A stretch of 34,110 bases of DNA from a virus: IMG/VR virus record IMGVR_UViG_3300032117_000096; one strand, given 5' to 3'. The notes beneath the pieces were generated by a model, which made no database searches, was not told the origin of the DNA, and worked only from the letters and a program-made list of their open reading frames with translations. Below are positions 2,809 to 27,324 of the stretch, in pieces. Both the position numbers and the translations under genes were made by a program. Each line of letters starts with the position of its first letter. Positions within the stretch are counted from its first letter, which is position 1.

Positions 2809-2814
2809 GATAAA

Positions 2815-7981: not shown

Positions 7982-8011
7982 TTGCATCGTAAGAAAATAA
8001 TGTGCATATTT
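7982..8011 (+). promoter_or_regulatory. Candidate sigma70-type promoter for the plus-strand cassette
   Basis: TTGCAT (7982-7987), 17-nt spacer, CATATT (8005-8010), or TGcATATTT as an extended -10. GGAG lies at 8040-8043 and the ATG at 8051. Confidence 0.3.
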
Positions 8012-8050
8012 AATGAGTGGGTATGACAAACAACAAAACGGAGATTTAAA

Positions 8051-8799: not shown

Positions 8800-9977
8800 G
8801 GAAGAATGTTTTTGTTGCCGCAATAGACAGGGTAAATTACATCTTCGACAACTTCCCAAAGATTTATGTGAGCTTTTCTGGCGGTAAGGACAGCTCAGTA
8901 ATGACGCATATTGTTGCAAGTGAGGCGCGTAGGCGTGGGGTTAAAATCGGGCTATTATGCGTAGACCTTGAGGCGCAATACAGACTTACGATGGATCATG
9001 TAGCGGAGATGTACGAAATGTATGCGGATGTCATTGAGCCTTACTGGGTTGCATTGCCGTTAAATCTCCGCAATGCTGTATCTCAGTATATGCCGCAATG
9101 GAAGTGTTGGGATGTCGAAAAGGCAGATTCATGGGTACGGAATCCGCCAAAAATAGCAATTACTGAAACACACAAATTCCCGTTTTTCCATGACGGGATG
9201 GAGTTTGAGGAGTTCGTTCCAGCTTTTGGAAAATGGTACTCCGAAGGGAAGCCATGCGCCTGCTTTGTCGGTATACGGTCAGATGAAAGTCTTAATAGGT
9301 GGCGCACAATATCGGGCGGAAGAAAGCAGATGTCTGATGGTCATAAATGGACGACGTGGATCGGCGACAGCGTATTCAATGCTTACCCGATTTATGACTG
9401 GAAAACTGAGGATTTGTGGACGTTCTCAGGTAAAACGGGATTGCCATACAATAAACTTTACGACCGCATGTATCAAGCAGGGCTAACCCTACACCAGATG
9501 AGAATCTGCCAGCCCTACGGAGACGACCAAAGGAAAGGGCTATGGCTGTTTCATATCATCGAGCCAGAGACATGGGGTAAGGTTATTGCAAGGGTAAATG
9601 GGGCAAATCAGGGGGCTTTGTATGCCCAAGAGAGCGGAAATGTCCTTGGTAATCGGATTATCAATAAGCCCGACAATCACACGTGGAAAAGCTTTGCATT
9701 CATGCTTCTGGACTCTATGCCAGACAAGACAGGAGACCATTATAAAGACAAGATAGCTGTGTTCCTGAAATGGTATTCAGATCGTGGATATGAAAGGGGT
9801 ATCCCAGATGACGGCCCCATGGATAAATCAGCTCCATGCTGGAAAAGGGTATGCAAGGCTTTATTGCGGAATGATTATTGGTGCAAAGGATTAAGTTTTG
9901 GGCAGCACAAAAGCGAAGCTTACGAGAAGTATAAAAAGTTAATGAGAAAAAGGAGGTCGGAATGGGGGATAATATAG
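8778..9977 (+). CDS. ibrA: PP-loop ATP pyrophosphatase of the PAPS-reductase family with a long C-terminal extension (IbrA-like)
   Basis: PP-loop SFSGGKDSS (nt 8871-8897) and FVGIRSDESLNRW, with about 200 aa of extra C-terminal domain. Immediately followed by a ParB-domain gene, which is the IbrA/IbrB architecture. Confidence 0.8.
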   Translation: MPTKKVLGKNVFVAAIDRVNYIFDNFPKIYVSFSGGKDSSVMTHIVASEARRRGVKIGLLCVDLEAQYRLTMDHVAEMYEMYADVIEPYWVALPLNLRNAVSQYMPQWKCWDVEKADSWVRNPPKIAITETHKFPFFHDGMEFEEFVPAFGKWYSEGKPCACFVGIRSDESLNRWRTISGGRKQMSDGHKWTTWIGDSVFNAYPIYDWKTEDLWTFSGKTGLPYNKLYDRMYQAGLTLHQMRICQPYGDDQRKGLWLFHIIEPETWGKVIARVNGANQGALYAQESGNVLGNRIINKPDNHTWKSFAFMLLDSMPDKTGDHYKDKIAVFLKWYSDRGYERGIPDDGPMDKSAPCWKRVCKALLRNDYWCKGLSFGQHKSEAYEKYKKLMRKRRSEWGII

Positions 9978-10507
9978 CCTTAGATTTCGGTGAAGTTCCT
10001 GATTGGGTGAAAGGTCATCCTGTATCAAAGGTGCAATGGGTGCCGATTGACAAGGTGCACGCGAACGATTACAACCCTAACAGCGTCGCGCCGCCAGAAA
10101 TGAAGCTTTTGAAGCTGAGCATTGAGAATGATGGATATACTCAGCCCATTGTAGCATGGGAGACTGAAGAGGGCTTATATGAGGTTATAGACGGGTTTCA
10201 CCGGCACAAGGTCGGGCGTGATTTGGGGCTATCTCACTTGCCCGTTGTTGTGGTAAATGCCGACAGACAAGAGCGCGGTGATAGAATAGCCTCAACGATA
10301 CGACACAATAGAGCAAGAGGAAAGCACCAAGTGGGAGCAATGAGCGATATAGTACAAGAGCTATCCCGTAGGAATTGGAGCGACGCAAAGGTTGCAAAAG
10401 AGTTGGGAATGGAGCCGGATGAAGTGTTAAGATTGAAACAAGTATCTGGACTTGCTGAACTCTTTGCTGATAAAGATTTTTCCGAGGCATGGGAGGTTGA
10501 ACGATGA
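9962..10507 (+). CDS. ibrB: ParB/sulfiredoxin-like nuclease-domain protein (IbrB-like)
   Basis: VPIDKVHANDYNPNSV...YEVIDGFHRHKV...ASTIRHNRARGKH are ParB N-terminal-domain motifs. It overlaps the PAPS-reductase gene by 16 nt. Confidence 0.8.
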   Translation: MGDNIALDFGEVPDWVKGHPVSKVQWVPIDKVHANDYNPNSVAPPEMKLLKLSIENDGYTQPIVAWETEEGLYEVIDGFHRHKVGRDLGLSHLPVVVVNADRQERGDRIASTIRHNRARGKHQVGAMSDIVQELSRRNWSDAKVAKELGMEPDEVLRLKQVSGLAELFADKDFSEAWEVER

Positions 10508-10725
10508 ATTTTACCATCACGGAGGCGGAGGTAATCCGCCTCACGGGATACAGCCGGCAGCAGCTCAGGAGGCTGCGGCAAGGCTTCGCGCAAAATAAAG
10601 GAGGCAAGGAGTACGTTGCAGATCCGGTTTTGCGACAGGGCATTGACTGGCAACGTTATGGCAGGGCAGTACTCTATAATGATTGCGTTATCGGGTTACT
10701 GATGATTCGAAAAGATGGAGCGTGA
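10504..10725 (+). CDS. Small putative DNA-binding protein (HTH-like), last gene of the cassette
   Basis: 73 aa with an ATGA overlap with the previous gene. ITEAEVIRLTGYSRQQLRRLRQG looks like an AlpA/excisionase-type helix-turn-helix. Confidence 0.4.
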   Translation: MNFTITEAEVIRLTGYSRQQLRRLRQGFAQNKGGKEYVADPVLRQGIDWQRYGRAVLYNDCVIGLLMIRKDGA

Positions 10726-10785
10726 TAGCACGAAAAACATAAATTTCGAATTTAAAAATGAACCGTATGTAAAAAAGCATGCTTT

Positions 10786-11130
10786 TTAACCGGAAATAAT
10801 TTTTTTACAAAGGTTTTCGCATGCTTTTAGTTCTTCATGGAGTGCCTCAATGCTCTTTATGATCTTTCTTCTTCTGTAAAATATTTCAGCGCGATGTATC
10901 TCTTTCCGCGCCTTGATCTTTCTTGAAATATCACGGATAACATCTTCTCGTGAGCTCCCTTTCGTGATTATTTTTGCGTTATTGATTGAGCAGGTAGCAG
11001 TCCAAGAGTAGATATGAGACCTGCTTTTGATATCGCGGGTCTTTTTACCCAAGAGACAACTTTGATGTCGGTATTCGCCATTATGCTCGATAACGACGAT
11101 CTCAGTTTCAATATTAATCGTTTCAGGCAT
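10786..11130 (-). CDS. Hypothetical protein (last gene of the early block)
   Basis: 114-aa ORF convergent with the plus-strand cassette. No family recognised. Confidence 0.55.
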   Translation of the reverse strand: MPETINIETEIVVIEHNGEYRHQSCLLGKKTRDIKSRSHIYSWTATCSINNAKIITKGSSREDVIRDISRKIKARKEIHRAEIFYRRRKIIKSIEALHEELKACENLCKKIISG

Positions 11131-11244
11131 GTTTTAAGCTATCTTTTTTTGCTTAACCACTACTTTGTCATCCACCAACCTGTTTTTGCCTCCTGATGCC
11201 CTTCCTGTGCGTTATACGCTATTTTATAGCCTTGTCTGCAGGCA

Positions 11245-11472
11245 CTAATCCGTTGCGCTGTGAAAGTTGTGCTCTATGATCTCCGAAATTACCCTTTCGA
11301 GGAATTCAACAGTATGCACCTCCGCTTGAATATGTTTGTATCCAAATAAATCGCCCAAACGATTGATTGCTTCCTCGTGTTTATCAAATCTTCTTGTAAT
11401 TTTTCCTGTATTGGCAGCTTTAATCACGCCCCTCATATCTCCATCTTCTCCGTTCATCATCTCGTCCCCCAT
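11245..11472 (-). CDS. Hypothetical protein
   Basis: 75-aa ORF that overlaps the upstream gene end by 16 nt. Confidence 0.5.
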   Translation of the reverse strand: MGDEMMNGEDGDMRGVIKAANTGKITRRFDKHEEAINRLGDLFGYKHIQAEVHTVEFLERVISEIIEHNFHSATD

Positions 11473-11960
11473 TTTTTAAGGTTGAACTTCTCAACATCCT
11501 CCCGCCTTGCGAACCGAGGGTTATCGTGACCTAAATCAATCGGCTCGTAATCTGCAAAAACCAGCTCCCCTTTATCGTGAGCTGTGCATATCTGCGCATA
11601 AGTCAGTGCTGTTTTATCGTACTTAATAAAATTTGCGATGTTTGGTATCTTTCCGTACCCCTCATAGTTATCGATCACAAAGTTAACAGCATCCATCATG
11701 CGTCGATCCGTGAACCCGTTTTCAGCAAACCGATCTTTCAGTATTTCAGTTTGATCTGAACTCCATCCAGGGAAAGCCTTAACGATCTTTGCGGTAACAT
11801 CAGCAACTCCTTTCTTCGTTCTCTCCCCTGCATAAACTGAGATAAAGCATCCGTCAGGCGTATCGGTCATCGTCGGCGATACTTTGCATGATTCCCGGTA
11901 AATCTGCATGTGTGATTGGCTGTTGATATCCAAGTGTTCCATTGCGCTTGACATGTCCAT
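11457..11960 (-). CDS. Putative replication accessory protein (G39P-like helicase-loader pattern). Start uncertain.
   Basis: The pattern KIVKAFPGWSSDQTEILKDRFAENGFTDRRMMDAVNFVI...IPNIANF resembles the N-terminal domain of G39P-type loaders. Candidate in-frame ATGs lie at 11960, 11954, 11942, 11909 and 11870, none with a clear SD. Confidence 0.35.
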   Translation of the reverse strand: MDMSSAMEHLDINSQSHMQIYRESCKVSPTMTDTPDGCFISVYAGERTKKGVADVTAKIVKAFPGWSSDQTEILKDRFAENGFTDRRMMDAVNFVIDNYEGYGKIPNIANFIKYDKTALTYAQICTAHDKGELVFADYEPIDLGHDNPRFARREDVEKFNLKKWGTR

Positions 11961-12594
11961 TTGCGTTTGAATAATTTGTTTTTGAGTTTACCATCCACTT
12001 CTTTGCTGCAGATGTCCAATTCCGCATTTTTACCTTTCCACACATCCAGCCATTAGCGTCGTAGTGATACCAAAACTTTCCTGCTTCTTCGTTTGTGCTT
12101 CCGTTTTCTGTAAAAAAAGAAGCAGTCTCTTTTTTATCAGGAGCGAAGAACGACTTTTTTCTAACACTATCGATAGTAAGAGTCTTCTTTATTGGTTTAT
12201 GGTTAATGGTTAATGGTTTATGGTTAGGGTTCGATTCGCTTTCAGTTGGCAACCCAGTGGGTTCCGGTTGGGTTTTTATTTCCTTCTTAGGCCTACCACC
12301 CTTAGCTCCGTTGTTTCTGTTCGCCTTTGCTTTTTTACCATAACCTTCAATCTCTTTGGCGCATCTCGGGTGAAACCACCCGTTTTCGGTCTCAACGAAG
12401 AAGTCTTTTAATACTCTGGCTATCACTTCGGTATCCACTCGTAACCGACGTGAAACCCAGTGGGTTTTTAATGGGATTTCAGATTCGGTATCGTAATACA
12501 TATCAATCAAGCGCCGGTACGCAATGTCCTCTTCATTGCTTAAGTGAGCAGTATTTGATCGGTAATCTCCGATATGAAATTTGTAGTAATGCAT
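11854..12594 (-). CDS. DUF1376 (YdaU-like) phage replication protein
   Basis: The N-terminus MHYYKFHIGDYRSNTAHLSNEEDIAYRRLIDMYYDTE is the DUF1376 signature. A basic GAKGGRPKK tract follows it. Confidence 0.8.
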   Translation of the reverse strand: MHYYKFHIGDYRSNTAHLSNEEDIAYRRLIDMYYDTESEIPLKTHWVSRRLRVDTEVIARVLKDFFVETENGWFHPRCAKEIEGYGKKAKANRNNGAKGGRPKKEIKTQPEPTGLPTESESNPNHKPLTINHKPIKKTLTIDSVRKKSFFAPDKKETASFFTENGSTNEEAGKFWYHYDANGWMCGKVKMRNWTSAAKKWMVNSKTNYSNANGHVKRNGTLGYQQPITHADLPGIMQSIADDDRYA

Positions 12595-12632
12595 GATTAA
12601 AACATCCCTTGAATAATAAAAATGAACATACC

Positions 12633-12696
12633 ATCAACAGGTAGCTGTTGGGTAATAAGACTGGTCTTTGAGACCGGAGGGAATCCCTCTGTTGAT
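12633..12696. promoter_or_regulatory. Nested inverted-repeat cluster upstream of the replication gene (candidate origin/operator or structured RNA)
   Basis: An outer 8-bp stem pairs 12633-12640 with 12689-12696. Inside it are CAACAG-gtag-CTGTTG (12635-12650), CTGGT-ctttgag-ACCGG (12661-12677) and the palindrome GAGGGAaTCCCTC (12677-12689). Confidence 0.4.
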
Positions 12697-12818
12697 AGCA
12701 CGTTCATAAAATTCATATTGTCAAATTATTTAAGTCAGCTACGACTCTCATTAATCCATCATAATAAATAATCCCATCAACAAAAAACATTTTTACCCCT
12801 GTAACGCTGAGTTTGCCA

Positions 12819-12965
12819 TTATTCAAAATATTTCTGTTCTGTTGTTGGAGTTATTTTCACATAAACCCCAGGATTTTCGGAATATCTTTTCATAGTTGCC
12901 GTGTACCACTCCCATTGAGTAATCCGCCTGTGGATGGTTATAAATCCGTCGTTATCGGTTGCCAT
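12819..12965 (-). pseudogene. Chimeric gene remnant: replisome-organizer-like N-terminus fused to a RusA C-terminal paralogue
   Basis: 48 codons: MATDNDGFITIHRRITQWEWYTATMKRYSENPGVYVKITPTTEQKYFE. GFITIHRRI.QWEWY is the start of DnaD/replication-organizer proteins. MKRYSENPGVYVKITPT parallels MKRYAENPGVYITIIPT at the end of the intact RusA gene, and nucleotide similarity is visible between 12830-12900 and 13262-13330. Confidence 0.5.
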
Positions 12966-13238
12966 TTAGTAGAGCAAAAGATTTTTAGGTTTGTTTATCA
13001 GCTCCTTGAACCCGTTATCCCAAAAGTAAACTCCATCCATCGGTATAATTCCGCACTCTATAGCTGCATTTCTTGCCGATTCATGGTCTTTAAAAAACAA
13101 CGGGAAACCGTCTAACAAAACAATCTGGTCAATATGGTTTTTGATGCAATAAGTGTCATCTCCGCCAACGTTATGGTTTATCCATCCGCGTTGAGATGTG
13201 ATGTAATTCGTGTCGAAATTTAAGGTAAGTTGCATCAT
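12966..13238 (-). CDS. Hypothetical protein
   Basis: 90-aa ORF with an ATGA overlap with rusA. The next ATG follows its stop directly. Confidence 0.55.
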   Translation of the reverse strand: MMQLTLNFDTNYITSQRGWINHNVGGDDTYCIKNHIDQIVLLDGFPLFFKDHESARNAAIECGIIPMDGVYFWDNGFKELINKPKNLLLY

Positions 13239-13678
13239 ATCTTATTTTGTTTATCCGGCAAATAACCATCCTCTTCTGTTGGAATTATTGTGATATAAAC
13301 ACCAGGGTTTTCTGCATACCTTTTCATAATAAGAGCCCTTGAAATCAAGCTGTCATCATACCAGAATATCCCGTTTAGTGCATCCCCAATAAATTTATAA
13401 AGATTGTCACAGTCGGGCTTTGATGAGTGATAAAACGGCGCAGAATCCTTCAACCCTTTTTTACAGTAATGTGATTTTGGTCGCGGAAACCGGAACTCCA
13501 TTATTACTGTTAATGGTTGACGGAAAGGCTTATCAGGCTTGTGTTTATCGGCCATAACGGAAAAACTGTACTTCGCTTCTGCGCTCGGATCAACCTGCAC
13601 GTTAAAGCCTGATTTTGACCTGAATGTTCGGTGCCTTTTTAGGGCCTCCGGCTTCCCTGGTACGAAGAATTCTATCAA
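13235..13678 (-). CDS. rusA: RusA-family Holliday-junction resolvase
   Basis: VPGKPEALKRHR...SKPDCDNLYKFIGDALNGIFWYDDSLI is the RusA motif. The start is TTG, preceded by GGGAGGttaaa. Confidence 0.85.
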   Translation of the reverse strand: MIEFFVPGKPEALKRHRTFRSKSGFNVQVDPSAEAKYSFSVMADKHKPDKPFRQPLTVIMEFRFPRPKSHYCKKGLKDSAPFYHSSKPDCDNLYKFIGDALNGIFWYDDSLISRALIMKRYAENPGVYITIIPTEEDGYLPDKQNKI

Positions 13679-13806
13679 TTTAACCTCCCGTTTTTATCCA
13701 CAATTACGCAAAATCGCCACCATGAATATACCGTATGATTGCGCTGTTTTCTGCGCTCGAAACTCAACGAAGAGCCGTAGTTTGGAAGCCAAACAAAGTG
13801 AATCAT
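13675..13806 (-). CDS. Possible micro-ORF (43 aa)
   Basis: Found by hand: MIHFVWLPNYGSSLSFERRKQRNHTVYSWWRFCVIVDKNGRLN. Its stop overlaps the rusA TTG (TTGA). There is no SD and no recognised family. Confidence 0.25.
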   Translation of the reverse strand: MIHFVWLPNYGSSLSFERRKQRNHTVYSWWRFCVIVDKNGRLN

Positions 13807-13810
13807 GATC

Positions 13811-13939
13811 TTAGTTTAGAGTGTTAAAAACATCACAACCTTCTTGCATCGGAACGAGATAATAGTTGTAGAAAATCCTGTGATAAAAGCCGTTGATCGG
13901 AACGACAATCCAGTATATCCTCGTGGGAATGTCAATCAT
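13811..13939 (-). CDS. Possible micro-ORF (42 aa)
   Basis: Found by hand: MIDIPTRIYWIVVPINGFYHRIFYNYYLVPMQEGCDVFNTLN. It has an ATGA overlap with the MazG-like gene stop. Confidence 0.3.
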   Translation of the reverse strand: MIDIPTRIYWIVVPINGFYHRIFYNYYLVPMQEGCDVFNTLN

Positions 13940-14235
13940 TCTGCACATTCCTTATCGTTTATCGCTTTTTCGAGCTTAATTCTTGCCTGATTTATGTGTG
14001 CTGAAGCATCAAAACCTTGAATATCTCTCTCAAAAAGCCATATCTTTTGTACTCGCTGAAAGACAAACAACACATCATTAAGCTCCTTAATCACAGACAA
14101 AGCATCACCTTTACCTTGCGCATATCGCTGCACTGCAAAGTGTAATTCACCCGTCTCTTCCTGGAGTTTATGGATAGCTTCTGAAGGGCCGAGAATTGAT
14201 ATCGCGCGCTCATGAATAGTTTCGTCTTGCTTCAT
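13936..14235 (-). CDS. MazG-like nucleotide pyrophosphohydrolase-family protein
   Basis: 99 aa. KLQEETGELHFAVQRY...IKELNDVLFVF fits the EExxE...ExxD metal-binding pattern of small phage MazG proteins. Confidence 0.5.
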   Translation of the reverse strand: MKQDETIHERAISILGPSEAIHKLQEETGELHFAVQRYAQGKGDALSVIKELNDVLFVFQRVQKIWLFERDIQGFDASAHINQARIKLEKAINDKECAE

Positions 14236-14564: not shown

Positions 14565-15058
14565 CTTCCCCTCCGATCTATCTCATCGTTTAGCATCACA
14601 GCAAGCTTATCTTTTTCAGCCTTTATTTCGTTGATGAAATAGCTTCCTGGATAGCACAGCGACTTAGACCTGTGGTGATAAATAATCCTATGCCGACCGC
14701 TTACAGTGCATTCCCTGTTTGAGATATTCGTGTAAGACAACTCATAACTTGGAAGAGGAAACCTTGTAACCTCGTCAAGAAAATCAGCCATGCTTTTTAC
14801 CCTTTGGCCTCGTCTAAATCGCAAATTGTTCGCTTGAAAATCATCATAATTGACTGAAGAGAGAGTCTTCTTTTGTGTTTTCACTGGATCCTGAAACCCC
14901 AACATCCGGTACATCCTGTTTATGTCGTCCTGACTCATAAACCCTTTTCCATCCGTGATAATAACTGTCACCGGATTGCCTGACGGCTTGCAGTCATTAT
15001 GCACATCTCTAAATGGCGTTACCTCTCTGTAAGTCTTTCCTATTGCGTAGTCACTCAT
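14543..15058 (-). CDS. Hypothetical protein
   Basis: 171-aa ORF that overlaps both neighbours. No family recognised. Confidence 0.55.
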   Translation of the reverse strand: MSDYAIGKTYREVTPFRDVHNDCKPSGNPVTVIITDGKGFMSQDDINRMYRMLGFQDPVKTQKKTLSSVNYDDFQANNLRFRRGQRVKSMADFLDEVTRFPLPSYELSYTNISNRECTVSGRHRIIYHHRSKSLCYPGSYFINEIKAEKDKLAVMLNDEIDRRGRCNKENF

Positions 15059-15248
15059 TTTCGAAAATGTTTAATGTTCGCGATTCATGTTTATTGACAG
15101 CTTCCTGCATGTGATCAAGCATTTTATCGGTCTGCGTCTCGCTACTCACGATCTCGTCACGATTCAGCATGAGGGAAAATTTTACTTGATCTCGTTCCGG
15201 TAATTTTGCGTACAATCTCAAATACTCCTGCTCTTGTTGTTCTGTCAT
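15051..15248 (-). CDS. Hypothetical protein
   Basis: 65-aa ORF with an ATGA-type overlap with erf. Confidence 0.5.
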   Translation of the reverse strand: MTEQQEQEYLRLYAKLPERDQVKFSLMLNRDEIVSSETQTDKMLDHMQEAVNKHESRTLNIFENE

Positions 15249-15937
15249 ACCAACCCCTCTTTATTTTGCGCGGCTTCAACGCTTTTTCTTGAGTCAATCT
15301 CTTTATTAATCCAATCGATTATCTTTGTGCCGTCTGCAGTCCCCGCTTCGATCTTTGCGTCTATCCCTGCGCGCTCTTTATCAGTGATTACGTGAGACTT
15401 GTACAATTTTCTGATATACTCTGCCTGTTTTGCAGTACAGAAAGATTTTTCCGTTTGTAACGGCTCAGGTGATTGATCTGGAACTTTATCTTTTGATGCT
15501 TTCGCTTTGTTTGTCTTTTCATCTTTATTGTCATTATTACCCGAAGCGGCATTTCCATCATCGTCATCAGTTACAACTCCCGCCATTGATGCAAGCAAAT
15601 ACCTTCTGCCATAAGTAATAGCGGAACCTATTCCTTGAGGGTCACGCTTCGCAGGGACAAGCCGTAACGAACTCTCTACCCATTGTCCCGATGAATGGCA
15701 TAGTCTGCATGTGACGGTTATAGAATCAGCATCTGAATCTGTTCCCTGAATAACGCATAGCCCGTTTGATGTCAACGGGATTTTGGCCACATCCCACACA
15801 TCTGCCAGATCAGCATACTTAGACTTAAAGTATGGGTTATCGCTTGCCTTCTTAGCGTTATGCATTTGTGCCTGAGCCTTTGATAGTGCTCCATATATCT
15901 CAGTTACTATCTCACTCGTTATCAGTGCCATCTTCAC
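15245..15937 (-). CDS. erf: ERF-family single-strand annealing protein
   Basis: NPYFKSKYADLADVWDV...PLTSNGLCVIQ...HSSGQW...GSAITYGRRYLLASMAGV is the ERF signature. The ORF opens with GTG at 15937. The ATG at 15931, preceded by GGGGGGtgaag, is the likelier start. Confidence 0.85.
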   Translation of the reverse strand: MKMALITSEIVTEIYGALSKAQAQMHNAKKASDNPYFKSKYADLADVWDVAKIPLTSNGLCVIQGTDSDADSITVTCRLCHSSGQWVESSLRLVPAKRDPQGIGSAITYGRRYLLASMAGVVTDDDDGNAASGNNDNKDEKTNKAKASKDKVPDQSPEPLQTEKSFCTAKQAEYIRKLYKSHVITDKERAGIDAKIEAGTADGTKIIDWINKEIDSRKSVEAAQNKEGLV

Positions 15938-16055
15938 CCCCCCGTTTGGTTGTTATAATGTCATCCGCCTGCTCTATAGTCTTGTCCTGATCGTCAGGAG
16001 TAAACCTGTCCGGAAGAGCACCCCAAAACGAGGTGCTCATTTGCCGGTCGATCAT
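15912..16055 (-). CDS. Possible small acidic protein (47 aa)
   Basis: Found by hand: MIDRQMSTSFWGALPDRFTPDDQDKTIEQADDIITTKRGGEDGTDNE. It fills the Gp157-erf gap and overlaps the erf start. Confidence 0.3.
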   Translation of the reverse strand: MIDRQMSTSFWGALPDRFTPDDQDKTIEQADDIITTKRGGEDGTDNE

Positions 16056-16069
16056 CCTTTCGTAGCTGC

Positions 16070-16600
16070 TCATCTTATAGTGAGGGAGTTTTTTGAAGTC
16101 ACTTCTATGTATTCCGGAACATCAAAACCCTTATTAAACTCTTTTATTGCCGAAATCGACGGTTTGAAAACAAACTCAGCAAGTTTATTCGATACTAGGT
16201 ACTTTTGCGTAAGATTATTAATGTCATCTTTAACCTTCCAACTGTCCGTTACCCTAACTGAATAGTTGTGCTTTAATGTCTTAACCTTTGTCTCTCCGAG
16301 CTCAATCATTGCTTGCAATACCCGTTCACGCGCCGAATCAGAAGCGTTTATCATCGTTTTTGCTCTCTTAGTGTACTCTTCTGCCAGTCCTTTTAAGTAT
16401 TCCGCTTGACCCTTGCAGTAACCTATCCACTCGGTATATGCATCAAGTTTATCCTTAAGGGAGGTTTCGTTATCCTCTATCAGTTCGATAATCTCAACAG
16501 TCAATTCACCGCCAGCATCAAAAAGTAATTCTTCCGCAAGGTGGTGGCGCATTACGATTGAATTGAGCGTTCGTTTTTCCTGTGGTTGTTGGTTTTCCAT
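16070..16600 (-). CDS. Siphovirus Gp157-like protein
   Basis: The layout is a coiled-coil centre followed by ...KVKTLKHNYSVRVTDSWKV...VPEYIEVTSKNSLTIR, which matches the Gp157 family often found next to ERF/RecT. The ORF is open to 16678. The ATG at 16600 (MENQQPQEK) avoids an overlap with the repeat gene. Confidence 0.6.
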   Translation of the reverse strand: MENQQPQEKRTLNSIVMRHHLAEELLFDAGGELTVEIIELIEDNETSLKDKLDAYTEWIGYCKGQAEYLKGLAEEYTKRAKTMINASDSARERVLQAMIELGETKVKTLKHNYSVRVTDSWKVKDDINNLTQKYLVSNKLAEFVFKPSISAIKEFNKGFDVPEYIEVTSKNSLTIR

Positions 16601-16661
16601 TTTTTCCGTATTATTTATTGTTGATGTTGTTTCTATGAGTCTGTTGCTTGAATCAGCAGGC

Positions 16662-17276
16662 TCATGGCTTTTCCTCATCGCCTACATCTCCGATATTGAG
16701 GCATCCAAGCGTTTTAACCTGCAATCCAAGCTGAGACTGTAGTCTCTGCTCATTTGCCTTTTTAAGGTTCTCAGCATTCCATTTGCGTTGATACTCTCTT
16801 ACCTTTTCAGGGTTCTCAGCCCTCCATTTGCGTTGATTCTCTCTTGCCTTTTCAGGGTTCTCAGCATTCCATTTGCGTTGATTCTCTCTTGCCTTTTCAG
16901 GGTTCTCAGCATTCCATTTGCGTTGATACTCTCTTACCTTTTCAGGGTTCTCAGCCCTCCATTTGCGTTGATACTCTCTTACCTTTTCAGGGTTCTCAGC
17001 CCACCATTTGCGTTGCTTCTCTCTTGCCTTTTCAGGGTTCTCAGCCCTCCATTTGCGTTGATACTCTCTTGCCTTTTCAGGGTTCTCAGCCCTCTGTTTG
17101 CGTTGCTGCTCATTTACCTTTTCAAGGTTCTCAGCCATCCATTTGCGTTGATACTCTCTTACCTTTTCAGGGTTCTCAGCCCTCCATTTGCGTTCCTTCT
17201 CATTTACCTTTTCAAGGTTCGCAGCTCTCCACTTACGTTGATACTCCCGCTTTCGCTCCCGTTGCTCTTCAGTCAT
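16662..17276 (-). CDS. Tandem-repeat protein: eleven 15-aa repeats, consensus ENPEKVREYQRKWRA
   Basis: 204-aa ORF. Almost the whole protein is periodic, with Pro, Trp and Tyr at fixed positions and K/R/E rich. A short non-repeat C-terminal tail follows. Confidence 0.7.
   Translation of the reverse strand: MTEEQRERKREYQRKWRAANLEKVNEKERKWRAENPEKVREYQRKWMAENLEKVNEQQRKQRAENPEKAREYQRKWRAENPEKAREKQRKWWAENPEKVREYQRKWRAENPEKVREYQRKWNAENPEKARENQRKWNAENPEKARENQRKWRAENPEKVREYQRKWNAENLKKANEQRLQSQLGLQVKTLGCLNIGDVGDEEKP
16745..17270. repeat. 45-bp tandem repeat array, about 11.5 copies
   Basis: The anchor ccatttgcgttg recurs at 16779, 16824, 16869, 16914, 16959, 17004, 17049, (17094 variant), 17139, 17184 and (17229 variant), an exact 45-bp period. 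Confidence 0.95.
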
Positions 17277-17338
17277 AATTCTTATTGTTGTTGATGTTGT
17301 TTCCGAAGTCCCGATGTTAGCGCATTGGGATTTCGCTT

Positions 17339-17512
17339 TTAAAGACTATCACTTATCGTTGTCATAAGCCAGAATCCAAGTTCAGCCACCTTTTCTGCTA
17401 ATTCTGTTGTGATCTGCGAGCCAACAGCCGTTTCTGTTGCAGGCATATCTATACTTTCAATCTCTGCCATATACGAGCTTAAAAGCGCCCTGTCTTTATC
17501 GTAAAACTCCAT
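17339..17512 (-). CDS. Small acidic protein (57 aa)
   Basis: Found by hand: MEFYDKDRALLSSYMAEIESIDMPATETAVGSQITTELAEKVAELGFWLMTTISDSL. It fills the gap between the membrane-protein genes and the repeat gene. Confidence 0.4.
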   Translation of the reverse strand: MEFYDKDRALLSSYMAEIESIDMPATETAVGSQITTELAEKVAELGFWLMTTISDSL

Positions 17513-17536
17513 AGCCGTTATTGTTATTATTGTTGA

Positions 17537-17761
17537 TTAATACCAGTACTCCTTTACACCGTCGCCCTCTTTGTCCGCAATCATCTCTTCCTTCCTAAAA
17601 TCATAAATCAGATAACCGGTCTTTACGACAACGAGAGCTAACGCAATCCAGAACCCAATCGAGGCACACAAAGTCATTTGCTCACCATCAATCGCGGGGA
17701 CAGCAAAGAGCCCGACGATCATTAGCACCATCCCCGTTTTTACCACTTCAATTGTCTTCAT
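17537..17761 (-). CDS. Small two-TM membrane protein (paralogue of 17788..17973)
   Basis: 74 aa with two hydrophobic helices. SD GGAGAGGAAGA. Shares M.TI..VK...V.MI.GL...P.IDGE..T with the upstream gene. Confidence 0.6.
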   Translation of the reverse strand: MKTIEVVKTGMVLMIVGLFAVPAIDGEQMTLCASIGFWIALALVVVKTGYLIYDFRKEEMIADKEGDGVKEYWY

Positions 17762-17787
17762 TCTTCCTCTCCGTTTTTGATCGTTGA

Positions 17788-17973
17788 TTATAATGGCTTA
17801 GGTATATTCCACTCCGCTATCGCCTCAAGCGCCTGAATAATACCAAGAATTACGGCAGAACAGATTCCTGCAAAAGATGTCATGGTTATCGTTTCCCCGT
17901 CGATTACAGGAGCCATCATTAGCCCTATAATCATTATGACGAGTGTGTTCTTTATTATGTCGATAGTGCTCAT
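17788..17973 (-). CDS. Small two-TM membrane protein (paralogue of 17537..17761)
   Basis: 61 aa with two hydrophobic helices. ATGA overlap with the upstream micro-ORF. Confidence 0.6.
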   Translation of the reverse strand: MSTIDIIKNTLVIMIIGLMMAPVIDGETITMTSFAGICSAVILGIIQALEAIAEWNIPKPL

Positions 17974-18116
17974 CCTTCCTCCTCTATCGGTATCTGATAG
18001 CTGTCTTCAGCCATCAAAATGCCGGCCTCGGTAAACTTTACGATCTCATAAAACTTGGTCTCTCGTGTGATCGAGTACCTGATCACGCGCCCGATCTCCG
18101 CCAAAAGCTTTTTCAT
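17970..18116 (-). CDS. Small protein (48 aa)
   Basis: Found by hand: MKKLLAEIGRVIRYSITRETKFYEIVKFTEAGILMAEDSYQIPIEEEG. Strong SD AAAGGAGGAAGAatg. ATGA overlap with the next gene. Confidence 0.55.
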   Translation of the reverse strand: MKKLLAEIGRVIRYSITRETKFYEIVKFTEAGILMAEDSYQIPIEEEG

Positions 18117-18132
18117 TCTTCCTCCTTTTTAA

Positions 18133-18390
18133 TTATACATCGCCAGAGCCAGACCCATTGCCATCGCCATAGCCTTTGCCATCGCCAGAGCCATTGCCAT
18201 TGCCTTCGCCATCGCCAGAGCCTTCGCCATAGCCTTCGCCATAGCCTTCGCCAGAGCCAGACCCATTGCCATCGCCATAGCCTTTGCCATCGCCAGAGCC
18301 ATAGCCAGAGCCATCGCCATCGCCAGAGCCATAGCCAGAGCCATCGCCAGAGCCATCGCCATCGCCATAGCCATAGTTTATACCGTCCAT
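18133..18390 (-). CDS. Acidic (Gly-X)n low-complexity protein, 85 aa
   Basis: The sequence MDGINYGYGDGDGSGDGSGYGSGDG...GSGSGDV has Gly at every second position, with X = D/S/Y/E/N/K. This frame has a good SD (GAGGtggcggaATG) and overlaps the end of the upstream gene by 13 nt. Confidence 0.5.
   Translation of the reverse strand: MDGINYGYGDGDGSGDGSGYGSGDGDGSGYGSGDGKGYGDGNGSGSGEGYGEGYGEGSGDGEGNGNGSGDGKGYGDGNGSGSGDV
18136..18375. repeat. Hexanucleotide-periodic tract (gccatN/gccagN units) containing a longer internal duplication
   Basis: The tract consists of gccagagcc / gccatcgcc / gccatagcc units. The segment gccagagccagacccattgccatcgccatagcctttgccatcgccagagcc occurs twice (about 18141 and about 18249, 108 bp apart). 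Confidence 0.9.
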
Positions 18391-18722
18391 TCCGCCACCT
18401 CATTTAATGATTTCAAAGCGATATGAGATAGTGGTATAATCTCTATCGCTTGGGTTAGGATTATTGACTTTACCGTCAAAGATATCCGGCTTTCTTTGAC
18501 GTTTTTCAGCCCTTTTTCAGCTATGTCGGACAGTGTATTTGCCCCGTTCCACGACCATATTCGGCGAGCGTTATTTAACTCCACTTCCATCCCGTCATGC
18601 CTGACTAGTTCGCCAAAATGCACGCCAGCCGAATAAGTGCGTATCAATACGTGCTTAGCCGATTCCGTCGGTGGAATCTTTTTTGTGTAAATTTCCCCAT
18701 TAATCGTGATTTCATTTGACAT
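18378..18722 (-). CDS. Conserved phage protein of unknown function
   Basis: 114 aa. The motif VLIRTYSAGVHFGEL...LNNARRIWSWNGANTLSDIA recalls a widespread phage family that I cannot name with certainty. Confidence 0.55.
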   Translation of the reverse strand: MSNEITINGEIYTKKIPPTESAKHVLIRTYSAGVHFGELVRHDGMEVELNNARRIWSWNGANTLSDIAEKGLKNVKESRISLTVKSIILTQAIEIIPLSHIALKSLNEVAEWTV

Positions 18723-18921
18723 GTTGGTTCCTGTTTTGTTGTTTATGGATAATTAATTCGATGTCTTCCATTTTGTGAAGCCTTCCCAAGATGTCTCTGA
18801 TACTTCCAGTACCGAAATCGACTGTCTGCAGACAAAAGACATCGTTATCACCGAACTCATTTTTGTTACTGAATTTGTCCAGGTACGCGAACCTTGATTC
18901 GTTGAATTCTTCTCGTGTCAT
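18712..18921 (-). CDS. Hypothetical protein
   Basis: 69-aa ORF that overlaps the downstream gene by 11 nt. Confidence 0.5.
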   Translation of the reverse strand: MTREEFNESRFAYLDKFSNKNEFGDNDVFCLQTVDFGTGSIRDILGRLHKMEDIELIIHKQQNRNQHVK

Positions 18922-18933
18922 TTTCCTCCCCGA

Positions 18934-19302
18934 TTAAAATGTTGTTGAAAATTCAGCCGAAACGCCACCCTGTTTCGGAGCAACCCGAACACCACCAAGC
19001 CAGGCACCAACAGCTCCTCCAATCGCCCACTCCGACATATCCGCCATGCTGGCGTTTTTGTCGAGCAATTCTTCTTTACCAATTCCGATCATTGATGGTA
19101 CTATCCAGCTTACAACTGGACTTGCTCCCTGCGTCCTGAGCGCATACGCAATGCCGGCACCAAGAGCGATATGAGAAGTAACAGGTACCCACGAAGGATT
19201 GTTGTTGCTCCAGTCGCAAAACTGCCGATACGAACTTTCCGCCCTTGCGCTTGCCGATTGCCCAACGAGCAGGCCTATAATTAGCCATGCGATGCGCTTC
19301 AT
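18934..19302 (-). CDS. Secreted / outer-membrane-like small protein
   Basis: The ATG at 19302 is preferred because of the strong SD AAGGAGAGcatt. It has a signal peptide MKRIAWLIIGLLVGQSASA|RAE, Gly-zipper segments, and a C-terminus ...AEFSTTF ending in Phe, as in OMP beta-barrels. Confidence 0.55.
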   Translation of the reverse strand: MKRIAWLIIGLLVGQSASARAESSYRQFCDWSNNNPSWVPVTSHIALGAGIAYALRTQGASPVVSWIVPSMIGIGKEELLDKNASMADMSEWAIGGAVGAWLGGVRVAPKQGGVSAEFSTTF

Positions 19303-21960: not shown

Positions 21961-23706
21961 TTATTGCGTCGAAACGCTTTGGTTTATCAACTCTATTTCT
22001 GACATGCTTGCGCCAATATATTCACCACTCATTCCAGTTATGCTCATTTCATCGAGATCACTTGGCATAAATCCAATGAGATCACTGAGTGTGCGATTTT
22101 GAGCCATTATAAGCTCTCCTGATGCAGTTACAAACGAACAATGCTCTACTGCATGAAGGGCGTAGATTCCAATGTCCACGGTAATCCAGACTCCTGAAGC
22201 TACGTCCGTTATGTGTAGTGTTTCAGATGCAAGAAACGCTGTGCCGAATGTAGTATTATCGAAAAGTAAGGACGTTTCAGTTGGGGATATTGCTGAAATC
22301 GTATAGACTTTCTCGCTTATCGCAGAACTTTCTGATATGGAAGTTGAAACCGATATTCCTGCAAGGTCGTTGCTGTTTAATGTTTCGGTGGACTGTATTA
22401 TCACTTGACCAAACGACGCATCTGTTTGAGCTGACGTGTCATTGGTCGATATCGAGACAACAGCTCCAAATAAATCAAAAGACCCAGAGGAATCTGTCGT
22501 TTTGATTACGGATAAGACGTTTGTTAACGTATCATTTGATGAACTGGAATCGGTAACTGTTGACAGAACTACGATTCCTGTTGACTCTGATGTTGCTGAC
22601 GAATCAAGAGCCGACACAGAGATTATAACAGACTTTGTGTCTGTTGATGTAGACATCTCTGAAGGGTATGATGATATCACACATGAAATTGCATCTGCAG
22701 CTGATCCTGAGTCGGCTGCGTTCAGGGCAGATGTGAACGTAGCAACATCAGTCGATGAAGACGAATCAAATCTTGCTGTCGTTATTGATATTGATGAGCC
22801 TTCTGAACCAGAAACCCTCTCTGAAGGCGAATAGGTTGCAAAGTTTCCCTGGATAACGGAATCTGTCGCTACTGAAGAATCAATAGCTATCAGCGAAACA
22901 CCGATTACGTAAATATCAGTCGATGATGACGAATCAGTGGATGTTATGGCGGATACCAACCCTACCACATCCGATGAGCTTGACGAGTCAACAGAAACCG
23001 GAGTTACGTTAATGCCTGGTTTGTCGGATGATGATGACGAGTCAACAGAAACCGGAGTTACGTTAATGCCTGGTTTGTCGGATGATGATGACGAATCAGA
23101 AGGAGATGCGCTTGCAACAATTGCTGAAGCATCTGTTGCTGTCGATGAGTCGGCAGGGCTCTCCGTATCGCTTCCTGCACCCGTCGCGGTTATCTGGATT
23201 GTGAACGAATTGTCATTTGATGCCATGCTCCCGAAACTACCCGGTGTTTCGGAAGATGACGGTGACGATTTGTAGAATATTCCTGAAGATCTACTCGGAT
23301 TGTTCGTCGTGTTTCCTGTGGTATACCCCGTCGGATTTGACGGTGATGTTGATGTGGTGTTCGCTATAGCTGCAAGGCAGTAATCAGAGCTACTAAGCCC
23401 TGTTAATGTCGGGCCGTTCTGCCCATCAACAGTATAATTCCCTATTGCAGCGCCACTGAAAGTCGCCATAGATGCGGTAGCGTATCCGCTTATGGTGATA
23501 TTGAACGACGATGTTGAAGACACAGTCCTATAATAGATCGCTCCATTTGCCGCGCTGTCCAATAGTGTCCAACCTGATGGTGTCGTTATACTATTGTTTG
23601 ACACCACCATCACGGCAAGGTGGCCTGATGCCGTTCCAGCAGGATACGACATTGATATTGAAGCACTCGCGTATCCTCCAGAACCGCCAATGAACGCGAT
23701 GCTCAT
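21961..23706 (-). CDS. Ser/Thr/Asp-rich repeat protein, probable tail-associated/surface protein
   Basis: 581 aa. About 175 aa form an N-terminal globular part (…PSGWTLLDSAANGAIYY…). About 300 aa then consist of degenerate ~18-aa units built on hydrophobic strand + DSSxxxD. A non-repeat C-terminal domain completes the protein. Confidence 0.5.
   Translation of the reverse strand: MSIAFIGGSGGYASASISMSYPAGTASGHLAVMVVSNNSITTPSGWTLLDSAANGAIYYRTVSSTSSFNITISGYATASMATFSGAAIGNYTVDGQNGPTLTGLSSSDYCLAAIANTTSTSPSNPTGYTTGNTTNNPSRSSGIFYKSSPSSSETPGSFGSMASNDNSFTIQITATGAGSDTESPADSSTATDASAIVASASPSDSSSSSDKPGINVTPVSVDSSSSSDKPGINVTPVSVDSSSSSDVVGLVSAITSTDSSSSTDIYVIGVSLIAIDSSVATDSVIQGNFATYSPSERVSGSEGSSISITTARFDSSSSTDVATFTSALNAADSGSAADAISCVISSYPSEMSTSTDTKSVIISVSALDSSATSESTGIVVLSTVTDSSSSNDTLTNVLSVIKTTDSSGSFDLFGAVVSISTNDTSAQTDASFGQVIIQSTETLNSNDLAGISVSTSISESSAISEKVYTISAISPTETSLLFDNTTFGTAFLASETLHITDVASGVWITVDIGIYALHAVEHCSFVTASGELIMAQNRTLSDLIGFMPSDLDEMSITGMSGEYIGASMSEIELINQSVSTQ
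22982..23089. repeat. Perfect 54-bp tandem duplication inside the S/T/D-rich gene
   Basis: The unit gacgagtcaacagaaaccggagttacgttaatgcctggtttgtcggatgatgat occurs at 22982-23035 and again at 23036-23089. It encodes VSVDSSSSSDKPGINVTP twice. Confidence 0.95.
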
Positions 23707-24987: not shown

Positions 24988-27324
24988 TCACTTATTGTAT
25001 TGCTCACCCACTGATGCCCCGAACGGTGTTAAGATAGTAGGCAAAAATCTTGGATATTTCGCAGGCAACTGGTTCAGTAAAGGCAGTCCATGGGTAAGAT
25101 ACGCTGCTGATATGGGATTGTCTGTCGCGCCAAGAATGAGGTTTGCAATCCCTGCTGAAGGAATTGCTGAGAGCGGATTCTGAGCAAGACTTTCGACAAA
25201 CGTTCTTGTTGCCGTTCCTGAATCGTTAAGAAGCCGCCAGTTTTTGTTCGCCTCCGCCAACCGTGCTATATCGACCAATGGGCCAGATATAGCACCTGTC
25301 TTATATGCATCACCATAGTAACTCTGCAATGCGTTCGCTACCGATAGAGGGTTTACATTACCATTGGTTACTGACTTTCCTTTTGTAAGGGTTTTCAGTG
25401 ACGAATACATTCTATCGGCCTTATCGAGTACGTCCTGAGAATTTTGAGGCAACGACTGGATAGCATTCTCTTGGAGGATCTTTTGTACATCCTTGAGAGC
25501 TGAACCAAGGGTAGTGTTTGGAGATGATGAATAGAGAGCATCGTCTGCAGCGTTTTTAAGCATTGTCCTACCGCCCTGATAGATATTCCCTGGTACGTCT
25601 CCTGCTCCGGTAAAGCTTGTGTATTTGTCGATTGCGTTATTCACACCTTGCCCAAGATCTCCAAAAGGAGCGTACTTTGACTTAATATCTGCGATCTGTT
25701 GCTGGAATTCAGGCCCAAACTGAATGTTTGTATCAGGAGAATAAACCTTGTTATAGAGCGATCCTATGTTATTCTTGGCTACACCGAGAACATCTGGCGT
25801 TATAGCATCTGCATCTTGGCCTATTGATTTTGCTGCAAGCGTGTTTAACGTTGACTGATTTCCCGTTACACGCGACTTCTTCCACCACGTCGCGCCAGGA
25901 ATATTCGACAACTGATCTTCTATGCTCATGAGACCTGGCTGTCCAGTCCTTTGTCCTGGAGTCAGGTTTATACCTATCTTATCAGCTAACGCAACACCAG
26001 CTTTTTCAGATGGCGAAAGATTTCCCATTGGTCGGAATATCGAGTTTGCAAGCTTTCCAACACCATATCCTGCTATTCCACCAAGCAATCCTCCACCAAT
26101 ATTGCCAGCGGACTGGCTTGCATAATCGCTGTTCTGCGTATCAACCGGCTGGAAAGAACCAAGAGCCCCTCCTATCGCAGCGGATCCGAAAAGCGTATTT
26201 GCGCCAGGAATAGACATTAAAGGAAGTCCTGCCGTTGCGTTCCCTAAAATCCTTCCCCAGTCTATATCAGACCCATTTTGAGTTTGATACGCTTTGTTGT
26301 AATCCCTAAGGCTATTTGATATATCCGCATCATTTTGGCCCATATTTTTGGTCAGCTTATCAATGATATCAGGCATAATAGGAGAAATTCCAGACATCAA
26401 AGGAGCTAACGAAGGAGCGGTCATTGCTCCAATATTTGGCAATACCGTGCTTAACGGAGTATCGGTAAGCGGAATATTATGTGTATTAATCCAGTCCATC
26501 AAGTGCATGGCTCGCTGGGCTGCTCCCTGACCAACATCTGTTAAACCCCTAACGAAACTATCACCAAAATTTAATTGATTATCAGGGGAAGATTGCTGTT
26601 GGTTATCATTTCCCTGTTCCGGTACAGGGCTCCACTGGTAATATTTTGAGTTCCACTGATGAGCGTTTCCATTAGCATCTTTATACCATTCGCCCTCCTT
26701 GATATCATGGGAACCGTCCCAATAGGAAATATTGCCTTGTTGCGCTTGCTGATTCTGAGGAGTTGTTGTTTCAGGATCCAAACCGAAAATATCAGCTCCT
26801 GTCGAACCAGAAGTATCTTGTTGCTGATTTTGCTCGCTCTGATTATTTTGAGATACCCCTCCAGGAGATAATCCAAAGATATCCGCACCATCAGAAGGGG
26901 TTTTTGCCTGGCTTGGAGAAAAAGCGGATGCCTGAGTTTGTTCAGGTTGCGGCCCATTTGAATTTGGAGAACCAAGAACTTTTGTGACATAATTTCTTGT
27001 TTCTGCAATATTTGGGATACCTCCAGAACGCCTTACATTTCCAGGTCCCGCATTATACGCTGCAACGGCAAGGTCAGGACTGCCGAAGTTATCAAGCTGC
27101 TGCTTAAGGTAACTTATGCCACCCCTTATATTCTGTGCCAAATCGCTTGGATCAACGCCAAGATCTTGAGCCGTTCCAGGCATTAATTGCATCACACCAA
27201 TAGCCCCAGCATCACTTACCTTTCCTTGATCGAATCCAGACTCTGCGTTCGCAACACGAAGAGCAAGGTCAGGATCTACGCCCTGGTTAATCGCCTCTTG
27301 TGATATTAAGCCTGTAATATCCAT
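24988..27324 (-). CDS. Internal virion / ejection protein with N-terminal lytic transglycosylase (SLT) domain
   Basis: ANAESGFDQGKVSDAGAIGVMQLMPGTAQDLGV...AAYNAGPGNV is the SLT catalytic region, followed by about 600 aa. The ATG at 27324 is TAATG-coupled to the upstream gene. An alternative ATG lies at 27360. Confidence 0.85.
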   Translation of the reverse strand: MDITGLISQEAINQGVDPDLALRVANAESGFDQGKVSDAGAIGVMQLMPGTAQDLGVDPSDLAQNIRGGISYLKQQLDNFGSPDLAVAAYNAGPGNVRRSGGIPNIAETRNYVTKVLGSPNSNGPQPEQTQASAFSPSQAKTPSDGADIFGLSPGGVSQNNQSEQNQQQDTSGSTGADIFGLDPETTTPQNQQAQQGNISYWDGSHDIKEGEWYKDANGNAHQWNSKYYQWSPVPEQGNDNQQQSSPDNQLNFGDSFVRGLTDVGQGAAQRAMHLMDWINTHNIPLTDTPLSTVLPNIGAMTAPSLAPLMSGISPIMPDIIDKLTKNMGQNDADISNSLRDYNKAYQTQNGSDIDWGRILGNATAGLPLMSIPGANTLFGSAAIGGALGSFQPVDTQNSDYASQSAGNIGGGLLGGIAGYGVGKLANSIFRPMGNLSPSEKAGVALADKIGINLTPGQRTGQPGLMSIEDQLSNIPGATWWKKSRVTGNQSTLNTLAAKSIGQDADAITPDVLGVAKNNIGSLYNKVYSPDTNIQFGPEFQQQIADIKSKYAPFGDLGQGVNNAIDKYTSFTGAGDVPGNIYQGGRTMLKNAADDALYSSSPNTTLGSALKDVQKILQENAIQSLPQNSQDVLDKADRMYSSLKTLTKGKSVTNGNVNPLSVANALQSYYGDAYKTGAISGPLVDIARLAEANKNWRLLNDSGTATRTFVESLAQNPLSAIPSAGIANLILGATDNPISAAYLTHGLPLLNQLPAKYPRFLPTILTPFGASVGEQYNK

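Follow-up and report, generated by a model that had tools for sequence, protein, structure and literature searches.

The virus genome described here, IMG/VR record IMGVR_UViG_3300032117_000096 (34,110 nt, referred to below as the window), carries on its minus strand a gene whose product is made almost entirely of tandem 15-residue units. The first 127 nt of the window (1-127) recur at its end (33984-34110); a 127-nt overlap is typical of circular assembly at k=127, and the window is a complete circular genome of ~33,983 bp. We conclude that the 204-aa open reading frame (ORF) containing the units is genuine and belongs to the early genes of this complete phage genome of ~34 kb, and homology searches place its product as a free-standing, very long form of a widespread, uncharacterised repeat family. 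The gene and its array comprise the following features.

16662..17276, minus strand: repeat-protein ORF, 204 aa, 25.5 kDa, pI 9.9, net charge +17, ATG start, without zinc ribbon or nuclease domain
16757..17246, no strand assigned: 45-bp tandem array, 10.9 copies, 88% matches, indel-free
17223..17267, minus strand: unit 1, EQRERKREYQRKWRA, residues 4-18, the oldest unit, degenerate and without the NPEK cap
16773..17222, minus strand: units 2-11, residues 19-168
16665..16772, minus strand: degenerate unit 12 and C-terminal tail, residues 169-204

Tandem Repeats Finder reported a single array with a 45-bp period (0% indels, score 735), and the phase of 16779 + 45n up to 17229 given in a preliminary description, made from the sequence alone, is correct. 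The tandem-repeat protein proposed there was confirmed by the array, the ORF and the 15-residue register. Read along the ORF, the protein consists of 12 units in exact register from residue 4 onward, or ~11-12 units of ENPEK[VA]RE[YNK]QRKW[RNW]A plus a short tail. Units 2-11 follow the pattern [AE]N[PL]EK[VA][RN]E[YNKQ][QE]RK[WQ][RNWM]A, and the degenerate unit 12 merges into the tail (ENLKKANEQRLQSQL...; tail ...EQRLQSQLGLQVKTLGCLNIGDVGDEEKP), with 22-36 non-repeat residues after the array. The whole protein contains one Cys and has 57 Lys+Arg against 40 Asp+Glu. Units 3 and 5-11 differ pairwise at 0-6 of 45 nt, units 8 and 11 being identical, in agreement with the earlier view that the array is young. 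Units 2 and 4 form an older pair, 7-10 nt away from the other units, in which conserved residues have been lost (P->L, R->N, W->Q), and synonymous differences from the consensus occur in unit 1 only. Both the zinc ribbon and the nuclease that accompany the repeat in relatives (see below) are missing from the window protein, and a 57-aa ORF upstream has no Cys. No second occurrence of the 15-residue motif was found elsewhere in the window. The minus frame named in the preliminary description is the coding frame, conserved in hundreds of protein homologues; the ORFs of 168 and 144 aa that cross the array on the plus strand simply mirror the repeat, and no homologues were found for them.

Tandem repeats are often mishandled in short-read assemblies, and the preliminary description had cautioned that the copy number might be an artefact of expansion or collapse. 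The identical 204-aa protein was recovered on at least 23 contigs (36 index blocks) of ~33.7 kb each from different JGI samples, two of these loci sharing 100% identity with the window. Because the longest exact repeat inside the array is 72 nt, k-mers of at least 77 nt are all unique, and the array can therefore be resolved by 150-nt reads. An exhaustive search also returned an 84-aa allele, exactly 8 units shorter and with the same ends, on a single 11.2-kb scaffold (L004, JGI 3300032859; gene at 2684-2938). Outside the array this scaffold is 100% identical to the window. It contains a 10-N gap, and its deletion junction lies inside a 57-nt exact repeat, where a k=55 graph would short-circuit. 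The allele was considered as a strain variant and rejected, its apparent mismatches being accounted for by the 10-N scaffold gap and a mis-registered repeat alignment; it probably arose by collapse of a k=55 assembly in a sample with low coverage, and serves as a caution against inferring copy-number variants from metagenome assemblies. An assembly artefact is unlikely for the 204-aa form, and we give very little credence to the idea that the copy number of the window itself is a product of assembly.

A search for the 15-mer consensus, proposed in the preliminary description, recovered a very large family. A word-indexed search returned 218 relatives (best homologue E 1.6e-46), and an exhaustive HMMER search of 1.84 billion representatives of clusters at 50% identity returned 1,227 cluster representatives at E<=1e-10 and 14,265 at E<=1e-3, the latter count possibly including compositionally similar Glu/Lys/Arg-rich helices. 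A unit logo built from 1,248 units, located by the Asn at position 2, gives the consensus [A/E]-N-P-E-K-x-R-E-x-x-R-K-[W/Y]-R-A. Conserved positions are P3 (66%), E4, K5, R7, E8, R11, K12 and W/Y13 (79%), with R14 and A15 at 49% each; positions 6, 9, 10 and 14 are variable. Arg is favored over Lys at 7, 11 and 14, and Lys is favored at 5 and 12. Units 3 and 5-11 of the window protein fit this logo at every conserved position.

As a sequence type, the repeat is not new by the profile matches obtained: it is already catalogued, and uncharacterised. PHROG 14214 matches the protein in 4 stretches at E 1.3e-17, PHROGs 10829, 17714 and 24127 also match, and all four are listed as "unknown function"; there is in addition a weak match to an HNH PHROG (phrog_7091, 'HNH endonuclease'). 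Searches of the repeat protein against Pfam, NCBIfam and PADLOC gave noise only, with no Pfam nuclease domain even at E<=10, and the Pfam models for NUMOD, IENR1 and AP2 matched neither the window protein, nor an idealised array, nor 141 relatives. No description of the repeat was found in the literature, and no Pfam, NCBIfam or PDB entry was found either; the clusters of its relatives are named 'hypothetical protein' only. A borderline DUF4880 match appeared on the idealised consensus array, not on the real protein (26.5 bits where 25 is required, and no individual stretch reached that score), and was set aside as a local W-x-x-x-[DN]-P motif rather than homology. By tblastn the repeat is present in 49 deposited phage genomes from many hosts, in proteins annotated as HNH endonuclease, endonuclease VII or hypothetical, and two such proteins examined in full terminate in H-N-H-type motifs. 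Since megablast of 15000-19000 against phage records gave no match, there is no close cultured relative. A scan of genome contigs returned a single MAG, the back-translated patterns being too specific, and gave no host assignment. The contexts of the repeat in JBD44 and in a Sinorhizobium phage were uninformative. The exhaustive search also found the repeat in six stretches of a 3,527-aa protein (P0231), and found a 563-aa protein (P0134) in which modules of zinc ribbon plus short array are themselves repeated five times.

In more than half of the close relatives, the repeat is a variable-length, non-catalytic arm of a phage or mobile-element nuclease of the HNH, endonuclease VII or GIY-YIG type. 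Among the 141 best representatives, the partner domains are HNH (61), Endonuclease_7 (11) and GIY-YIG (2), with one TniQ and single or some HTH cases. The usual order in nuclease relatives is an N-terminal CxxC...CxxC zinc ribbon, the array and a C-terminal nuclease; many relatives begin with the zinc ribbon, and many others are without it. The earlier expectation that the repeat recurs in phage proteins of HNH/AP2 type is thus borne out for HNH but not for AP2, which was found in none of the 141 scanned relatives. Its further expectation of one to three copies was too low: among the 263 best relatives the usual number is 4-5, reaching 11 or more. The array spans 179 aa in the window protein against a median of 123 aa in relatives. 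Array-only proteins, defined by an N-flank of <30 aa and a C-flank of <40 aa, account for 7 of the 262 other relatives (~3%), and the array of the window protein is the longest of these, so the suggestion that a long free-standing array would be unusual holds.

Copy-number change by whole units was observed in another phage lineage. Four temperate-phage contigs (L006, L008, L009 and L010, with the gene at 6001 in each) carry syntenic orthologues composed of zinc ribbon, array and a 45-aa tail, with lengths of 197 aa (7 units), 167 aa (5 units), 152 aa (4 units) and 137 aa (3 units); there is also a form of 182 aa, and the L006 orthologue shows a 90-bp, two-unit higher-order repeat. These contigs represent different phages, since the flanks of the gene are 88-96.5% identical in nucleotide sequence, and assembly collapse is unlikely because the longest internal exact repeats are 23-67 nt. 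Because the four syntenic orthologues differ by whole units, gain and loss of units is judged to be a property of the family and its nuclease-less members to be conserved genes. The sequence evidence likewise indicates that the array is functional without a nuclease, since nuclease-less versions are conserved and syntenic across four diverged phages. The preliminary description had expected copy number to vary; it does so among these orthologues (3, 4, 5 and 7 units); in the window phage the single short allele is probably a collapse.

Variation within the window array follows the same constraints as the family. In units 2-11 it falls only at codons 1, 3, 6, 7, 9, 10, 13 and 14 and is all nonsynonymous, none of the ~15 nucleotide differences being synonymous; positive selection is not significantly supported by this count, because no more than 18% of the single-nucleotide changes that could occur would be synonymous (p ~0.05). 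Among the young units (3 and 5-11) the differences are limited to codons 6, 9 and 14, and stops and frameshifts are absent. All three codons are among the four most variable positions of the family, a coincidence with a chance of ~4/455. Because the variation of the young units is confined to positions the family leaves unconstrained, the array is evolving under the protein-level constraints of the family, which argues against both a dead remnant and a purely DNA-level element. Eleven phased direct repeats in a replication and recombination region could act as DNA, whether as iterons or an origin, as a binding array for a phage protein or as a recombination hotspot, with the ORF incidental, and some phage origins are located within genes. 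However, thousands of proteins share the peptide repeat although their coding DNA is very different, the constraint seen acts on the protein, the unit lacks strong dyad symmetry, there is no local change in GC skew, the window yielded no Rfam or tRNA features, and the nearest related phage (L003) has no such array. We therefore regard a DNA-level role as highly improbable.

AlphaFold2 modelling from a 48-sequence alignment gave a mean predicted local distance difference test (pLDDT) score of 93.5 and a predicted template modelling (pTM) score of 0.56. Each unit is predicted to form one 14-residue helix (e.g., 21-34, 66-79 and 81-94) with a single-residue break at each Asn-Pro, in support of the proposal that Pro serves as a helix break; in units 4 and 12, where Leu replaces Pro, no break is predicted. 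The helix extends to about residue 191 (EQRLQSQLGLQVKTL), a segment similar to the amphipathic helix found at the end of nuclease-less relatives; disorder is predicted for the final ~13 residues. Foldseek comparison of the model with PDB and BFVD, a check the preliminary description had called for, gave no usable match. Sequence and profile searches of PDB returned nothing significant; the best hit, the 'WLKDNPE' stretch of the RecA C-terminal domain (E 0.07 with a four-unit profile), is a helix junction best regarded as a local helix-cap analogy and not as evidence of homology. Because pTM is moderate and Foldseek matches are absent, the model suggests an open, kinked rod or loose superhelix. 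The helical-repeat solenoid of the earlier account is accordingly retained as a helical repeat but not as a compact solenoid.

The regular basic and aromatic face proposed earlier is supported by helical spacing and by the logo. At alpha-helical spacing, R7, R11 and R14 fall on one face of the helix with a hydrophobic stripe of positions 6, 9-10 and 13 adjacent, and E4/E8/K12 and E1/K5 form the opposite, salt-bridged face; in the window helices the Arg ladder at 7, 11 and 14 lies beside a Val/Tyr/Trp stripe (V6/Y9/W13) with i, i+3/4, i+7 spacing. Net charge is ~+2 per unit in the window protein and averages +2.45 per unit in the family, where arrays are positive in 245 of 245 proteins.

These properties bear on whether the array is a semi-rigid spacer, ruler or scaffold, in which the number of units would set the distance between a zinc-ribbon anchor and the nuclease, or the rod would recruit a protein partner, the free-standing form being a scaffold or a competitor for that partner. 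The units are rich in Glu, Lys and Arg with i/i+4 pairs, as in ER/K single alpha-helices, orthologues differ in length by whole units, and the array usually lies between the N-terminal zinc ribbon and the C-terminal nuclease. The low pTM and lack of Foldseek matches suggest an extended rod, and the terminal amphipathic helix of the nuclease-less members could serve oligomerisation. A spacer would need neither the conserved Trp/Tyr, nor the preference for Arg over Lys at 7, 11 and 14, nor the uniform positive charge; many relatives have no zinc ribbon from which anything could be spaced, and array-only proteins exist. We consider a role as spacer, ruler or scaffold unlikely.

The surroundings of the gene contribute the following features.

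16070..16600 (called to 16678), minus strand: Sipho_Gp157 / Mu-Gam-like protein, downstream neighbor
15245..15937, minus strand: Erf single-strand annealing protein, in the operon of the repeat gene
17288..17301, minus strand: leader motif AACAACATCAACAA, copy 1, 11 nt upstream of the repeat-gene ATG
16618..16631, minus strand: leader motif AACAACATCAACAA, copy 2, 17 nt upstream of the probable gp157 start (ATG 16600)
17304..17335, minus strand: RNA hairpin upstream of the leader, -11.9 kcal/mol, z = -2.6

The repeat gene lies ~2.3 kb into a leftward early operon that starts at a divergent promoter-like region near 19.6 kb, and is followed directly downstream by genes for a Sipho_Gp157/Gam-like protein, Erf, RusA and a DUF1376 replication protein, so the adjacency to recombination genes of the early block noted previously is supported. 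Gp157 was called from the ATG at 16678 (202 aa, overlapping the repeat gene), and the start of its orthologue in L003 equals ATG 16600 (MENQQ.../MEQTQ...). The true product is probably 176 aa, starting at 16600, without overlap with the repeat gene, whose stop codon is only 61 nt from the next gene. The 14-mer AACAACATCAACAA has exactly two exact copies in the genome, which bracket the repeat gene. L003, the nearest related phage (Gp157 69% identical), does not carry the repeat gene and has a ParB-like ORF in its place; a hairpin at the equivalent position precedes its gp157. Because the leader is duplicated in the window and the single gp157 leader of L003 with its preceding hairpin aligns to both copies, the repeat gene looks like a cassette inserted into the gp157 leader. 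Nuclease-less relatives also occur in early operons, upstream of ERF, YqaJ or SbcC-like plus RecT modules, a suggestive association. The repeat gene has no Shine-Dalgarno sequence, which is also lacking from several further early genes whose leaders are CA-rich like its own. Such 'aacaacaa'-type leaders precede 8051, 16600, 17276, 17512 and 18722, and other genes have clear GGAG sites, a distribution that suggests two modes of translation initiation in the window phage.

The cassette-like character of the gene, its absence from L003 and the predominance of nucleases among its relatives would all fit a decaying remnant of a free-standing homing-type nuclease gene, one that has shed its catalytic domain and zinc ribbon, has since enlarged its array by replication slippage or unequal recombination, and has no selected function. 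Homing endonuclease genes can decay to remnants that retain only the binding domain (PMC2248197). The near-identity of the young units, the loss of conserved residues in units 2 and 4, and the missing Shine-Dalgarno sequence are likewise compatible with decay. Against this, the ORF is unbroken, the young units vary only at positions unconstrained in the family, nuclease-less versions are conserved and syntenic in four diverged phages, and the CA-rich leader without a Shine-Dalgarno site is shared with other early genes of the window phage. We find a functionless remnant doubtful.

Several other features of the genome were recorded. The large terminase is 52% identical to that of EBPR podovirus 1. 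A second gene with an in-frame repeat, an 85-aa ORF rich in Gly, Tyr, Asp and Ser (MDGINYGYGDGDGSGDGSGYGSG...) at 18133-18390 on the minus strand, contains an array at 18138-18376 with a 6/12/30/42-bp repeat; its counterpart in L003 is a 68-aa GYGSGS protein (L003 1365-1571) in which a 6-bp unit occurs 31 times, and the lineage has therefore conserved this low-complexity protein. Two short tandem repeats lie in the structural region: a 54-bp unit at 22981-23098 (2.2 copies, 98% identical) inside a 581-aa ORF (21961-23706), and a 51-bp unit at 28470-28573 (2.0 copies, 94% identical) inside a 490-aa ORF (27324-28796). At 8778-10507 on the plus strand, opposite to the early operon and between it and the terminase, genes for a PAPS-reductase/DUF3440 protein of 399 aa and, after it, a ParB_N-domain protein of 181 aa form a pair that recurs in phages.

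Taken together, we tentatively favor the interpretation that the window protein derives from the repeat arm of phage nucleases and stands alone without a nuclease, as an extended, polycationic series of capped helices that would bind nucleic acid through its Arg/aromatic face and act early, beside end-protection and annealing proteins. We infer binding from the charge, the Arg/aromatic face and the domain partners, and from analogy with the NUMOD modules of homing endonucleases; the biological role is a proposal. Each unit is one helix that begins at the Asn-Pro-Glu-Lys cap, gains stability from Glu-Lys/Arg pairs at i/i+4 and is divided from the following helix by a one-residue break. The array would form an extended, kinked, polycationic helical rod or open superhelix lying along the nucleic acid, with contacts made by the Arg/aromatic face and with footprint length and avidity set by the number of units. 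The window protein either lost a zinc ribbon and catalytic domain or never possessed them, and its gene looks like a cassette dropped into the leader of the gp157-erf recombination operon. Its product may be a non-cutting binder of DNA (or of ssDNA or RNA) early in infection, possibly one that coats or shields DNA on behalf of the neighboring end-protection and annealing proteins, or alternatively one that occupies sites that would otherwise be used by nucleases with the same arm.

A number of points weigh against this interpretation. The case for nucleic-acid binding by the repeat protein is an indirect one. The Val/Tyr/Trp stripe could be a surface for protein-protein contacts or for packing between helices rather than one that contacts bases, and the fusion to nucleases is as compatible with spacing as it is with binding. 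The overall shape was read from the DSSP string, the pTM of 0.56 and the absence of Foldseek matches only, and no solved or predicted structure resembling the model was found. The looser family count carries the compositional caveat given above. The gene is missing in L003, and is thus dispensable for that lineage, and it may lie near recombination genes simply because phage early operons are usually arranged in that way.

It is the family that is of most interest: with ~1,200 to 14,000 clusters (50% identity) it is large, it is joined to three or more kinds of phage or mobile-element nuclease, it varies by whole units and it is undescribed in the literature found. If the array is a DNA-engaging arm, gain and loss of units would offer selfish nucleases a simple change of footprint or affinity, and the nuclease-less versions would be natural binding-only derivatives in phage early and recombination operons. 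If it is only a spacer or a decaying remnant, the value would be one of annotation. The window protein is a convenient test case, since it is small, consists almost entirely of repeat, has a high-confidence structure prediction and was recovered from many samples.

In comparison with known systems, the window protein has the 15-residue unit, register and logo in common with the repeat-arm nucleases (PHROG 14214, 10829, 17714, 24127 and, in part, phrog_7091). Those proteins have a catalytic domain and often a zinc ribbon, whereas the window protein has neither, and its array comprises 11-12 units (179 aa) compared to 4-5 units (median 123 aa). Its closest sequence relatives are nuclease-less temperate-phage proteins (P0008, P0021, P0078, P0120 and the P0004/P0019 group), which are 60-72% identical over the repeats. 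These proteins likewise lie in early operons upstream of ERF, YqaJ or RecT, change by whole units and have a similar terminal amphipathic helix, but they keep the CxxC...CxxC zinc ribbon, a longer conserved tail and only 3-7 units.

The inference of DNA binding draws on analogy with the NUMOD1-4, IENR1 and AP2 accessory modules of homing endonucleases, which, like the repeat, are short, variable in number and fused to unrelated nuclease folds in free-standing phage genes (see also PMC2248197). They differ in showing no Pfam sequence match, and the repeat unit is a single helix present in up to 11 or more copies in exact phase. The paper on a Xanthomonas phage HNH enzyme concerns AP2-type enzymes, not the 15-residue repeat (PMC2248197).

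TALE, PUF and PPR proteins resemble the family in their tandem helical units, near-invariant scaffold, few variable positions and near-identical DNA repeats, but their units have 33-36 residues and two or three helices, compared to 15 residues and one helix here. The NPEK-W unit could be a modular nucleic-acid-reading repeat, with one helix per fixed step of DNA or RNA and residues 6, 9, 10 and 14 tuning specificity, that is, a TALE-like evolvable nuclease arm allowing quick retargeting by gain and loss of units; on that reading the free-standing 12-unit protein would block or regulate in a sequence-selective way, or would confer immunity to nucleases bearing the arm. The variable positions (6, 9 and 14 in the window; 6, 9, 10 and 14 in the family) are equally well explained by relaxed constraint as by a base-specifying code, and we consider such a code improbable.

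ER/K single alpha-helix (SAH) domains are charged, salt-bridged helices like the repeat, but are approximately neutral and have no Pro or conserved Trp, and the proline-punctuated helices of apolipoproteins also have Pro at a fixed period, but in units of 11 or 22 residues with broad hydrophobic faces. Compared to SAH domains and apolipoproteins, the repeat is strongly basic, with a narrow hydrophobic stripe, a break at every Asn-Pro and Trp/Tyr in 79% of units. Finally, DNA-mimic decoys of the Ocr/ArdA type present a strongly acidic surface, whereas the window protein, which has no PADLOC matches, has a pI of 9.9 and a net charge of +17, contradicting the decoy surface suggested in the preliminary description and setting the repeat protein apart from proteins of that kind.

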